DNA from: a virus | Direction: 5' to 3' (one strand) | UHGV virus genome: UHGV-0017337 | DNA: 43,119 nucleotides | Part shown: positions 19,832 to 20,432 of the stretch, piece by piece | Position numbering within the stretch: position 1 is the stretch's first letter | How the letters are laid out: every line of letters begins with the position of its first letter | Position numbers and translations under genes: made by a program | The notes under the pieces: model-generated | Database searches by the model: none | What the model was told of the DNA's origin: nothing | The model's input: only the letters and a program-made list of their open reading frames with translations

Positions 19832-19857
19832 AAAAAAAGCCGTCTTAAACAGACGGC
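19832..19857 (-). terminator. Rho-independent terminator closing the ORF-free segment
   Basis: The minus strand reads gccgtct-gttta-agacggc followed by ttttttt. Confidence 0.8.
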
Positions 19858-20432
19858 AAATGGCTCTGGGTGATAATGAGGGTTTTACATAACTGGTCAT
19901 CCACACCTGACGTCCCAACATACCCCTATGCGTGACACGTGAATAACCAGTTATGTAAAACGACACGCAGTTCAGGATGTTTCACAACATGCTTTACCCA
20001 CGATTTGCGGCTTTCCCGCCAGCAAGATAAGGGTCACCTCCTTATCAGCGAGTGTTTGGGTTGTGGCGGTCGGTGCTGAACCCCGACTTAATGACGATAG
20101 GCGTGTACCGACGCCTCGTTTTACTTCCTCCGCTTTCACGGCTTCACCCTAGACCAGCTTTACGAAATCCTCGTAAACCTAACCGCGGCAGATATGACCG
20201 GCACGGTGTGCCATATCACGGACCGGCGGGTGTCTCGTTCACCTGATTAACGCATCAGCCTGCGTATTCACCACAACGATAAGAGCACTGAGATGTATGA
20301 TAATCGTCGCAGCACAGCTTTACATTATTCAATGCTCTTATCTGTTATGTGCCGGTTACGTTTATCCGGCGTCTTTCGACCGATTAAGTGATAGTGTCTG
20401 CTATGCAGTTCTGTCACTGACTTAACAATAGG
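19858..20432 (-). ncRNA. Candidate large structured non-coding RNA (family not recognised)
   Basis: 575 nt with no minus-strand ORF of 60 aa or more. GC looks higher than the surrounding sequence by eye (one 60-nt stretch, 20221-20280, counted at 33/60). At least 10 local helices, including a 16-bp perfect inverted repeat (19882-19897 / 19946-19961) and an 11-bp helix (20281-20291 / 20329-20339). GAAA and GUGA tetraloops and a G-U pair work only in the minus sense. A terminator lies at the 3' end. Confidence 0.5.

Follow-up and report, generated by a model that had tools for sequence, protein, structure and literature searches.

The subject of this analysis is an apparent intergenic gap of 640 nt in the head operon of UHGV virus genome UHGV-0017337, a stretch of 43,119 nt (hereafter the window) from a 9NA/Sasha-like siphophage in which this region shows 99.3% identity with Escherichia phage PDP46 and 98.7% with Salmonella phage Sasha (BLAST). 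The gap is probably a small non-coding RNA locus made of exchangeable modules that circulate among enterobacterial phages, and not one large RNA. Its central part consists of a long helical stem followed by a tRNA-like scaffold RNA of 221 nt, the latter being one of several kinds of cargo held between the strands of a conserved closing helix. What looks like empty space between two genes is in fact a copy of a module that also occurs in the late leader of phage lambda and in several phage families. An earlier note on this DNA had proposed that the segment is a single structured RNA of about 0.6 kb, possibly of an undescribed family. A structured, non-coding RNA read from the minus strand is supported by G-U pairs, by covariation and by the lack of any coding match; the single family is refuted, the segment being a mosaic of separately inherited modules in which the middle 235 bp and the flanks differ in ancestry. 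The suggestion of an undescribed family survives in part: Rfam 15 holds no match, yet the stem-plus-cargo arrangement is present in lambda and the STnc100 RNA shares the scaffold below threshold.

The stem is a helix of 20 bp with one bulge, which folds at -28.1 kcal/mol (z = -4.43) and encloses a variable insert of 37 nt (20328-20292). In its common form, CACAAC is followed by a bulged A and GGUAAGAGCAUUG; a variable insert of about 28-140 nt then leads to CAGUGCUCUUUCC and GUUGUG. A motif of 40 nt around 20291-20250 recurs at 90-97% identity in the intergenic DNA of very different phages; it was inspected in IME11 (N4-like) and Klebsiella phage Magnus (Vi1-like), and HK620 and HK629 also carry copies. 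With the loci added by two pattern scans of viral contigs, 162 distinct stem copies were counted in 152 loci from several phage families, after the removal of chance hits in coding DNA; about one third of the hits of the second scan (CCGTTGTGGTGAAT) were chance matches in protein genes of environmental contigs and were dropped. Across 77 distinct versions, 93.8% of the aligned cells are paired (an inflated value; see below) and 10 of the 19 pairs have changed on both sides, while none of 500 shuffles did as well and slid registers dropped to 34-62% paired. The window's stem aligns without gaps with the lambda stem and 75 other variants. At one pair, 52 of the 77 sequences have U-G, and at several others G-U stands in 11-14 sequences; on the opposite strand these would become C-A, and the pairing therefore works only for the minus-sense RNA. 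Moreover, the phages PJ16 (CCCACG-AAUGAGAGUAUUG.../...CAGUAUUCUCAUU-CGUGGG) and KP13-27 (UGAGUGGCG/CGCCACUCA) have stems of wholly different sequence and the same shape. An HDV-like (hepatitis delta virus) or hammerhead ribozyme was considered for the stem and dropped by eye: the structure is a plain nested helix, with CUGAUG in a loop that has a conserved complement.

The cargo of the window, referred to as type 1, is arranged like a tRNA with its anticodon arm replaced (Table 1). An acceptor-type terminal helix (GUUGUGGUG/CGCCACAAC) is followed by an unpaired CCA, and two hairpins at the D-arm and T-arm positions flank a large central domain. In an alignment of 44 distinct scaffolds, which carry 41 different central domains of 32-178 nt, 96.2% of the cells are paired (inflated in the same way), and compensatory changes occur at all five pairs of hairpin 1, at 3/5 of hairpin 2 and at 2/5 of a pairing between the two loops. 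This loop-loop pairing, GCUGA/UCAGC, holds in 99% of cells, with a double compensatory change to GUCGA/UCGAC in one sequence. The closing helix covaries across cargo classes, with GUUGUGCUG/CAGCACAAC and GUUGCGGUG/CACCGCAAC among its variants, and the stem of hairpin 2 (GCCGG/CCGGC) matches, in sequence and position, the true T-arm of the tRNA-like class. The 5' strand of this closing helix starts with GUUGUG(GUG), which also ends the stem, and its downstream partner is CACCACAAC. The minimum free energy fold of the unit reproduces the scaffold helices. In Hafnia phage Meifeng and in an Aeromonas phage, divergent copies of this cargo retain both ends of the central domain together with an AGGCG...CGCCU hairpin and differ in the middle. 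The unit is not a tRNA in the strict sense: no cloverleaf is recognized that has an anticodon arm as well as D and T loops of canonical form, and RF00005 gives no hit at E<=10 over 19600-20700. A check for the G3-U70 pair of alanine identity found none in the acceptor-like helix.

Most of the local observations from which the note had started were borne out. The gap runs from the stop at 20433 to the ATG at 19792 (window 19793-20432) and holds no credible gene; open reading frames (ORFs) of at least 30 aa within it have no Pfam or PHROG match at E<=1. The statement that no minus-strand ORF reaches 60 aa is right except for a GTG-extended form of the downstream gene (19382..19966), which touches the gap. 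The segment, judged by eye to be GC-richer than its neighbors, has a GC content of 0.50-0.54 over 19900-20300 against 0.39-0.46 in the flanks. The 11-bp helix at 20281-20291/20329-20339 belongs to a 14-nt inverted repeat (20278-20291/20329-20342) in the stem, and it and the hairpin at 20251-20264 lie in the structures that covary across dozens of phages. The 7-bp hairpin is present (20026-20032/20040-20046), as is the 16-bp inverted repeat described as perfect, which turns out to form the center of longer arms, 23 nt each and with 91% complementarity (19882-19904/19939-19961). A long-range pair, 20060-20066/20271-20277, was found in addition. Folding of the 601 nt is better than that of shuffled controls (z = -4.26 in minus sense and -4.06 in plus sense, with 0/20 shuffles as good). 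As the energy is similar on both senses, it does not pick a strand; the minus strand is picked because many G-U pairs occur in the covarying helices.

The mosaic nature of the locus is apparent when it is compared with phage genomes by BLAST. Over the 235 bp from 20290 to 20056, identity to CUS-3, Huey and IME10, which are P22-like phages, is 99.1%, whereas the flanks follow the 9NA/Sasha lineage, and recent exchange of the scaffold RNA with P22-like prophages is evident from these alignments. A copy covering at least 80% of a 261-nt query around the scaffold RNA occurs in 117 E. coli genomes; in CUS-3 and UTI89 the copy is unannotated, with the Q antiterminator on one side and the holin gene on the other, and none of the motifs is present in the Q-to-lysis region of DLP12 in E. 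coli K-12. Relatives with flanks of 98-99% identity have different contents in the same slot. Sasha, whose identity to the window is 97.5% upstream of the slot and 99.1% downstream of it, has 39 unrelated bases between the equivalents of 20266 and 20066 where the window has 199, with the same helix strands around them; about 400 bases of PJ16 are different further upstream, the version of PDP46 is rearranged, and 9NA has only a short gap with neither stem nor cargo. Homology breaks off within short conserved strands, of 25 bp at the left end and 11 bp at the right. Such fast turnover of cargo between near-identical phages is the pattern of accessory or counter-defense loci.

Exchange at such precise borders could conceivably mark an element that acts as DNA, either as recombination linkers ("boundary sequences") or as the ends of a selfish cassette, with the RNA structure a by-product of inverted repeats. 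A "boundary sequence" is indeed annotated on nearby stretches in the CUS-3 record, an HNH endonuclease gene adjoins the unit in HK629, cargo exchange has its breakpoints exactly in the conserved strands, and the 9-nt terminal inverted repeat (GTTGTGGTG/CACCACAAC) is loosely like integron core sites, whose consensus is GTTRRRY. Homologous recombination in conserved RNA-coding flanks, however, explains the breakpoints equally well. The G-U pairs valid on one strand only, the stems of PJ16 and KP13-27 that were completely rewritten with their shape kept, and the covariation of the internal hairpins and the loop-loop complementarity all speak against a DNA-level element, and no recombinase or target-site duplication was noticed in the inspected loci, where no systematic check was made. 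Overall, this explanation is very unlikely. Classification as a miniature inverted-repeat transposable element or an integron attC-like cassette was likewise rejected: inverted terminal strands are present, yet the G-U pairing is strand-specific.

A scan of bacterial genomes returned many hits in non-enteric taxa (Pseudomonas, Shewanella, Oceanobacillus, Neobacillus and others; L228-L267), which lie either on contigs of low coverage and about 48.4 kb or on very small ones; most likely these are lambda DNA carried into assemblies and not real prophages, and they are therefore no evidence of a wide host range. Lambda itself was examined because so many contigs of that size were returned. At 44791-44963 of J02459 (44787-44945 as delimited in locus L268, 988-1146), in the untranslated late leader, it has the stem and then a cargo with GUUGUGCUG/CAGCACAAC as closing helix and CCA behind it. 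The 6S/tR' terminator immediately precedes this copy and gene S comes after it; the old lambda annotation "orf-64" overlaps its start. The stem motif CACAAC-A-GGUAAGAGCAUUG ... CAGUGCUCUUUCC-GUUGUG is common to lambda and to units of the window's type, and many lambdoid and P22-like phages have stem-plus-cargo at lambda's late-leader place. In contrast to lambda, the window's unit sits in a 9NA-like head operon behind a promoter-like site of its own rather than behind pR'/tR', and its type-1 cargo differs in type from that of lambda. In vivo RNase III processing sites in lambda late RNA were reported, to judge by its title, in a 1988 study by Daniels et al. in Virology (167:568; cited in PMC7547250).

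Between closing-helix strands, other phages hold real tRNAs, tRNA-like RNAs, the 39-nt cargo of Sasha, a class resembling STnc100, and type 1. Real tRNAs (Arg-UCU, Gly and Gln) stand directly after GUUGUG in some units. Type-3 cargo has D and T arms of canonical form, together with a long extra arm; a relaxed ARAGORN run draws it as a cloverleaf with the acceptor UUGUGGUG/CGCCACAA followed by C and CCA, and this acceptor is the same helix that closes the cargo. Genes for tRNAs occur within 1.5 kb of 35 of the 163 unique stem segments; they adjoin the element in Meifeng and IME11, and they occupy the same slot in Klebsiella phage Carvaje. The hairpin at 20351-20370, upstream of the window's stem, agrees in stem sequence and position with the hairpin located before the 3' closing strand in cargo units, and it looks like the 3' end (a T-arm-like hairpin and closing strand) of an upstream cargo that was lost. 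As a separate observation, the variable inserts of the stems often hold T-arm-like hairpins of the form GGUUCGAnUCC (Magnus, L006, 1935-2005; KP13-27, L269, 465-490; also L095, L018 and L127), and that of Magnus contains an entire sequence of tRNA size, not called by ARAGORN.

Of the RNAs in Rfam, the nearest is STnc100 (RF02076), described as a prophage-encoded small RNA (sRNA) of the late regions of lambdoid prophages, where it is found downstream of stx2; the related Pas sRNAs, including PasD, are reported to be abundant, Hfq-bound and derived from lambdoid prophages. The layout of STnc100, that is, closing helix, AAU, hairpin, variable middle, hairpin and closing strand, is also that of 20277-20057. 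The window differs from it in the hairpin loops (GGCUGA/UUCAGC) and in the middle domain, STnc100 sequences carrying CGGGAGGCACCCG. The STnc100 model gives no hit in the window at its gathering threshold (47 bits), nor at E<=10 over 19600-20700; on a sister cargo it scores 33 bits (E = 4e-4), which is below threshold, with closing helix aligned to closing helix. Magnus has a true STnc100 hit of 52.9 bits elsewhere in its genome, with the same layout, and the GCGGCUAAGCGC...CGGGAGGCACCCGG cargo class gives no hit at gathering in 12 loci. The window's RNA is best described as belonging among the loosely known small RNAs of lambdoid late leaders and prophages, relocated into a 9NA-like head operon.

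A processed, stable, trans-acting small RNA in a tRNA-like scaffold is the best reading of these sequences, and a fairly probable one. Transcription would start at the locus's own promoter-like site (TTGACA-17-TATTGT), with a contribution from read-through past the capsid-gene terminator at 20829-20806. RNase III would then cut the 20-bp stem, and the tRNA-like ends would be trimmed by RNase P at the 5' side and by exonucleases to CCA at the 3' side. A stable RNA of about 220 nt would thereby be released to act in trans, its constant scaffold providing stability and processing and its variable central domain forming the working part. The Hfq-bound sRNAs STnc100 and PasD, the first of which shares the scaffold, give the one experimental hint as to a target; a role as tRNA mimic or decoy is another candidate.

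Several observations weigh against such an RNA. The paired fractions quoted above are inflated because alignment partners were chosen partly by their ability to pair and each scan pattern fixed one strand, and the loop-loop covariation depends on a single sequence (L108). GUUGUG has two possible partners, the upstream CAUAAC and the downstream closing strand, which makes the two helices mutually exclusive over 6 nt. By itself the type-1 unit is not significantly better folded than shuffles (z = -1.43), CCA is present in only about one third of type-1 copies, and ARAGORN calls no tRNA or tmRNA (transfer-messenger RNA) in the window, even with relaxed settings and introns included. The putative RNase III site is placed in the stem by analogy with lambda and because of the stem's conservation in structure only and its length, a helix of 20 bp with one bulge being suited to the enzyme. 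The RNA itself is a prediction from sequence.

It is also conceivable that the segment works only in cis, as a leader or untranslated region that sets expression of the capsid block relative to the head-tail joining genes through RNase III, the ribosome-binding sequence, a micro-ORF and the terminator, with a functionless cargo. The setting would suit it: terminators flank the locus on both sides within the late structural operon, the late leader of lambdoid phages holds the same modules ahead of the lysis genes, and no part is better conserved across 9NA-like phages than the trailer downstream of the cargo (the match to the anti-Shine-Dalgarno sequence, the micro-ORF and the terminator). 9NA, however, manages with a far shorter gap that has neither stem nor cargo, and the scaffold is conserved and covaries in phages that hold it in quite other places, such as beside clusters of tRNA genes or ahead of terminase, and in phages of the N4-like and Vi1-like groups. 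Moreover, a pure spacer would not retain an acceptor-like helix, paired loops and 99% identity across unrelated phages. A purely cis-acting role is on balance rather unlikely, and the trans-acting scaffolded RNA is preferred.

The hexamers and spacing of the promoter-like site are identical in 9NA and KP13-27, a promoter is annotated at the equivalent position in the AVIO78A record, and transcription is predicted to start near 20418. The intrinsic terminator noticed at 19832-19857 was confirmed (19857-19839 and a T-run); it is annotated in Sasha and kept in the Klebsiella relatives. Together, promoter-like site and terminator suggest that the locus may be a discrete transcription unit.

The trailer and terminator form a separate, vertically inherited part, which probably lowers read-through into the head-tail joining genes. 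Across the 9NA-like relatives the trailer keeps AGGAGGUGA(U)C, the 17-codon UUG-initiated ORF and two hairpins with almost no variation; the GUGA hairpin shows one compensatory pair. The Shine-Dalgarno-like site UAAGGAGGUGA (20044-20034) and the micro-ORF 8 nt downstream of it (20025-19972; predicted 17-aa peptide MLAGKPQIVGKACCETS) are both present as the earlier note had reported, but KP13-27 and Carvaje, the Klebsiella relatives, do not retain the hairpin said to half bury the site. The site, which reads UAAGGAGGUGAUCC in 9NA, is a near-perfect complement of the 3' end of 16S rRNA. Between trailer and terminator lies a palindromic insertion found only in 10 records of the Sasha clade, all 100% identical, and absent from 9NA and the Klebsiella relatives; it was considered as a mobile element and rejected, since it was found only in the Sasha clade within the phage collection.

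The conservation of the micro-ORF raises the question of whether the gap is a decayed or unrecognized protein gene, expressed either through ORFs annotated on the reverse strand or as the 17-codon product. PDP46 and PJ16 do annotate reverse-strand hypothetical proteins in the slot, as does lambda with its orf-64, and the micro-ORF keeps its length, UUG start and stop in all four phages compared (the window phage, 9NA, KP13-27 and Carvaje), its very strong ribosome-binding sequence being kept in the last three. Against this, no gap ORF of at least 30 aa had a Pfam or PHROG match, and the reverse ORFs that are annotated differ even from one near-identical phage to the next. The substitution pattern of the micro-ORF does not look protein-like: third positions account for only 2/5 variable sites, and two of these changes form a compensatory RNA pair. 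Coding would in any case be confined to the micro-ORF, which spans 54 of the 640 nt, and a protein gene is extremely improbable.

The equivalent gaps of the Klebsiella relatives KP13-27 (about 1,080 nt) and Carvaje (about 860 nt) contain a further module. Their order is promoter-like site, stem, a tmRNA-type tag module (ANEEMYLAVA), second stem, cargo, trailer and terminator; the second-stem cargo, closed by the same helix, is type 1 in KP13-27 and different in Carvaje, which also has a tRNA-Ser between cargo and conserved trailer. PJ16 carries a tag module (ANEERFLMAA) as well, and in all three phages it lies in the slot of the window's gap. Altogether 24 distinct tag modules were found, all of exactly 10 codons and of the form AN[DE][DE]xxL[AM][AV]A plus stop(s), with synonymous codon variation and preceded by ...AGAUAAAU. 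They have no recognizable tRNA-like domain of tmRNA, and the Rfam tmRNA models match the tag regions in sister loci only below threshold; ARAGORN (-m) finds no tmRNA among 128 loci or in the window. Tag modules are followed by type-1 cargo in 11 of 18 cases, against 62 of 162 overall, an association that is suggestive only. The window has no tag frame (from a GCA resume codon to a hydrophobic ...AA tail), and no description of such tag peptides or of phage "tmRNA-like" elements of this kind was found in the searchable literature.

The comparison with tmRNA, and with the phage tmRNA-like form of mycobacteriophage DS6A that lacks a coding sequence (CDS), rests on the tRNA-like frame of acceptor and T-arm, on the large insert replacing the anticodon arm and, in sister loci, on the tag frame in the same slot. 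The window differs in having no tag frame, G3-U70 or canonical T-loop and no ARAGORN or Rfam tmRNA match, and in the sister phages the tag modules lie outside the tRNA-like unit. The CDS-less form is reported to inhibit host tmRNA (PMC11915505). A tag module and its neighboring tRNA-like unit could conceivably form a phage-made split tmRNA analogue that redirects or blocks ribosome rescue and tagging, with the window's copy as a tag-less version comparable to the inhibitory CDS-less forms; this is distinctly unlikely, and the tag modules in the slot of the sister phages make the link to ribosome rescue directly testable.

Other known RNAs offer looser parallels. The "species 1 and 2" RNAs of phage T4 are small and stable and sit in its tRNA cluster, and in engineered tRNA scaffolds an RNA placed in a tRNA frame is trimmed and stabilized by tRNA-processing enzymes; both are analogies of mechanism only. 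GOLLD, ROOL and HEARO/OLE are large, structured and phage-borne, often beside tRNA genes, and the window's segment differs from them in being a chain of small independent modules that have no Rfam match. Over the whole window Rfam 15 gave no match at gathering, including none for RNase P, 6S, group I/II introns, GOLLD, ROOL, OLE, HEARO or riboswitches, and only two chance-level hits of terminator type at E<=10 over 19600-20700. No description of the stem-plus-cargo organization, or of its presence in lambda and across families, was found in Rfam 15 or in the accessible, incomplete literature. If processed as proposed, the unit would be a natural example of RNAs in a tRNA-like frame, would account for the large unannotated gaps beside phage tRNA genes and between Q and lysis genes, and would offer a defined, swappable site for the study of phage small RNAs.

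Table 1. Features of the gap and its surroundings (window positions), with related modules in other phages (locus positions)
Feature	Position	Strand	Description
Scaffold-like protein gene		minus	first in gene order here
Major head protein gene	21868..20849	minus	after the scaffold-like protein gene
Gene for 117-135-aa protein	stop at 20433	minus	directly upstream of gap
Sigma70-like promoter	20425..20453	minus	TTGACA-17 nt-TATTGT; 10/12 matches; overlaps stop codon of upstream gene
Hairpin	20351..20370	minus	GCCGG-AUAAACGUAA-CCGGC, then ACAUAAC
Putative processing stem	20272..20349	minus	CAUAAC/GUUGUG 6 bp, bulged A, GAUAAGAGCAUUGA/UCAGUGCUCUUAUC 14 bp
tRNA-like scaffold RNA (type-1 cargo)	20057..20277	minus	221 nt
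Closing helix	20277-20269/20068-20060	minus	9 bp, GUUGUGGUG/CGCCACAAC; then CCA 20059-20057
Hairpin 1	20265-20250	minus	preceded by AAU; loop GGCUGA; D-arm position
Central domain	20249-20088	minus	162 nt; anticodon-arm position
Hairpin 2	20087-20069	minus	loop GGUUCAGCA; T-arm position
Vertically inherited trailer	19965..20056	minus	94.6% identity with 9NA; conserved in KP13-27 and Carvaje
Trailer hairpin		minus	GCGG-GAAAG-CCGC
Trailer hairpin	19992-19975	minus	GUGA loop
Palindromic insertion	19880..19964	minus	85 nt; 23-nt inverted-repeat arms
Intrinsic terminator	19832..19857	minus	GCCGUCU-GUUUA-AGACGGC + U7; about 40 nt before start of next gene
Gene for 136-aa protein	ATG at 19792	minus	directly downstream of gap
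Head closure and neck protein genes		minus	after gene for 136-aa protein
Tag module, PJ16	L004 1720-1772
Tag module, KP13-27	L269 554-586
Tag module, Carvaje	L270 487-519
Tag module, HK620	L005 1810-1842
Tag module, IME11	L007 1820-1852
Tag module, Magnus	L006 1777-1809
GUCCAGACGAUAUCUGAG module, IME11	L007 ~2135-2170
GUCCAGACGAUAUCUGAG module, 9NA	L225 ~1440-1475
GUCCAGACGAUAUCUGAG module, KP13-27	L269 ~127-160

The start of the gene downstream of the gap deserves comment. From the ATG at 19792 the 136-aa product spans PHROG 21889 end to end, and the Sasha annotation has the same start with a ribosome-binding site. The GTG-started alternative of 194 aa (19382..19966) runs through the terminator and the palindromic insertion into the gene; this extended start is annotated in PDP46, and longer upstream-extended starts also appear in the AVIO78A and 9NA records. 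Such long forms look like mis-annotations because the 136-aa form fits the PHROG profile from end to end. Upstream, a strong intrinsic terminator (20806-20829, minus) stands directly after the major head protein gene, and the stretch after that gene in Sasha (L002, 1150-1299) gives a sub-threshold isrP match of 29 bits, probably a similarity of terminators only. Finally, a short non-coding module of the form GUCCAGACGAUAUCUGAG(U/C)GACUU...AAAAAC is shared beside cassette units of N4-like and 9NA-like phages (Table 1).

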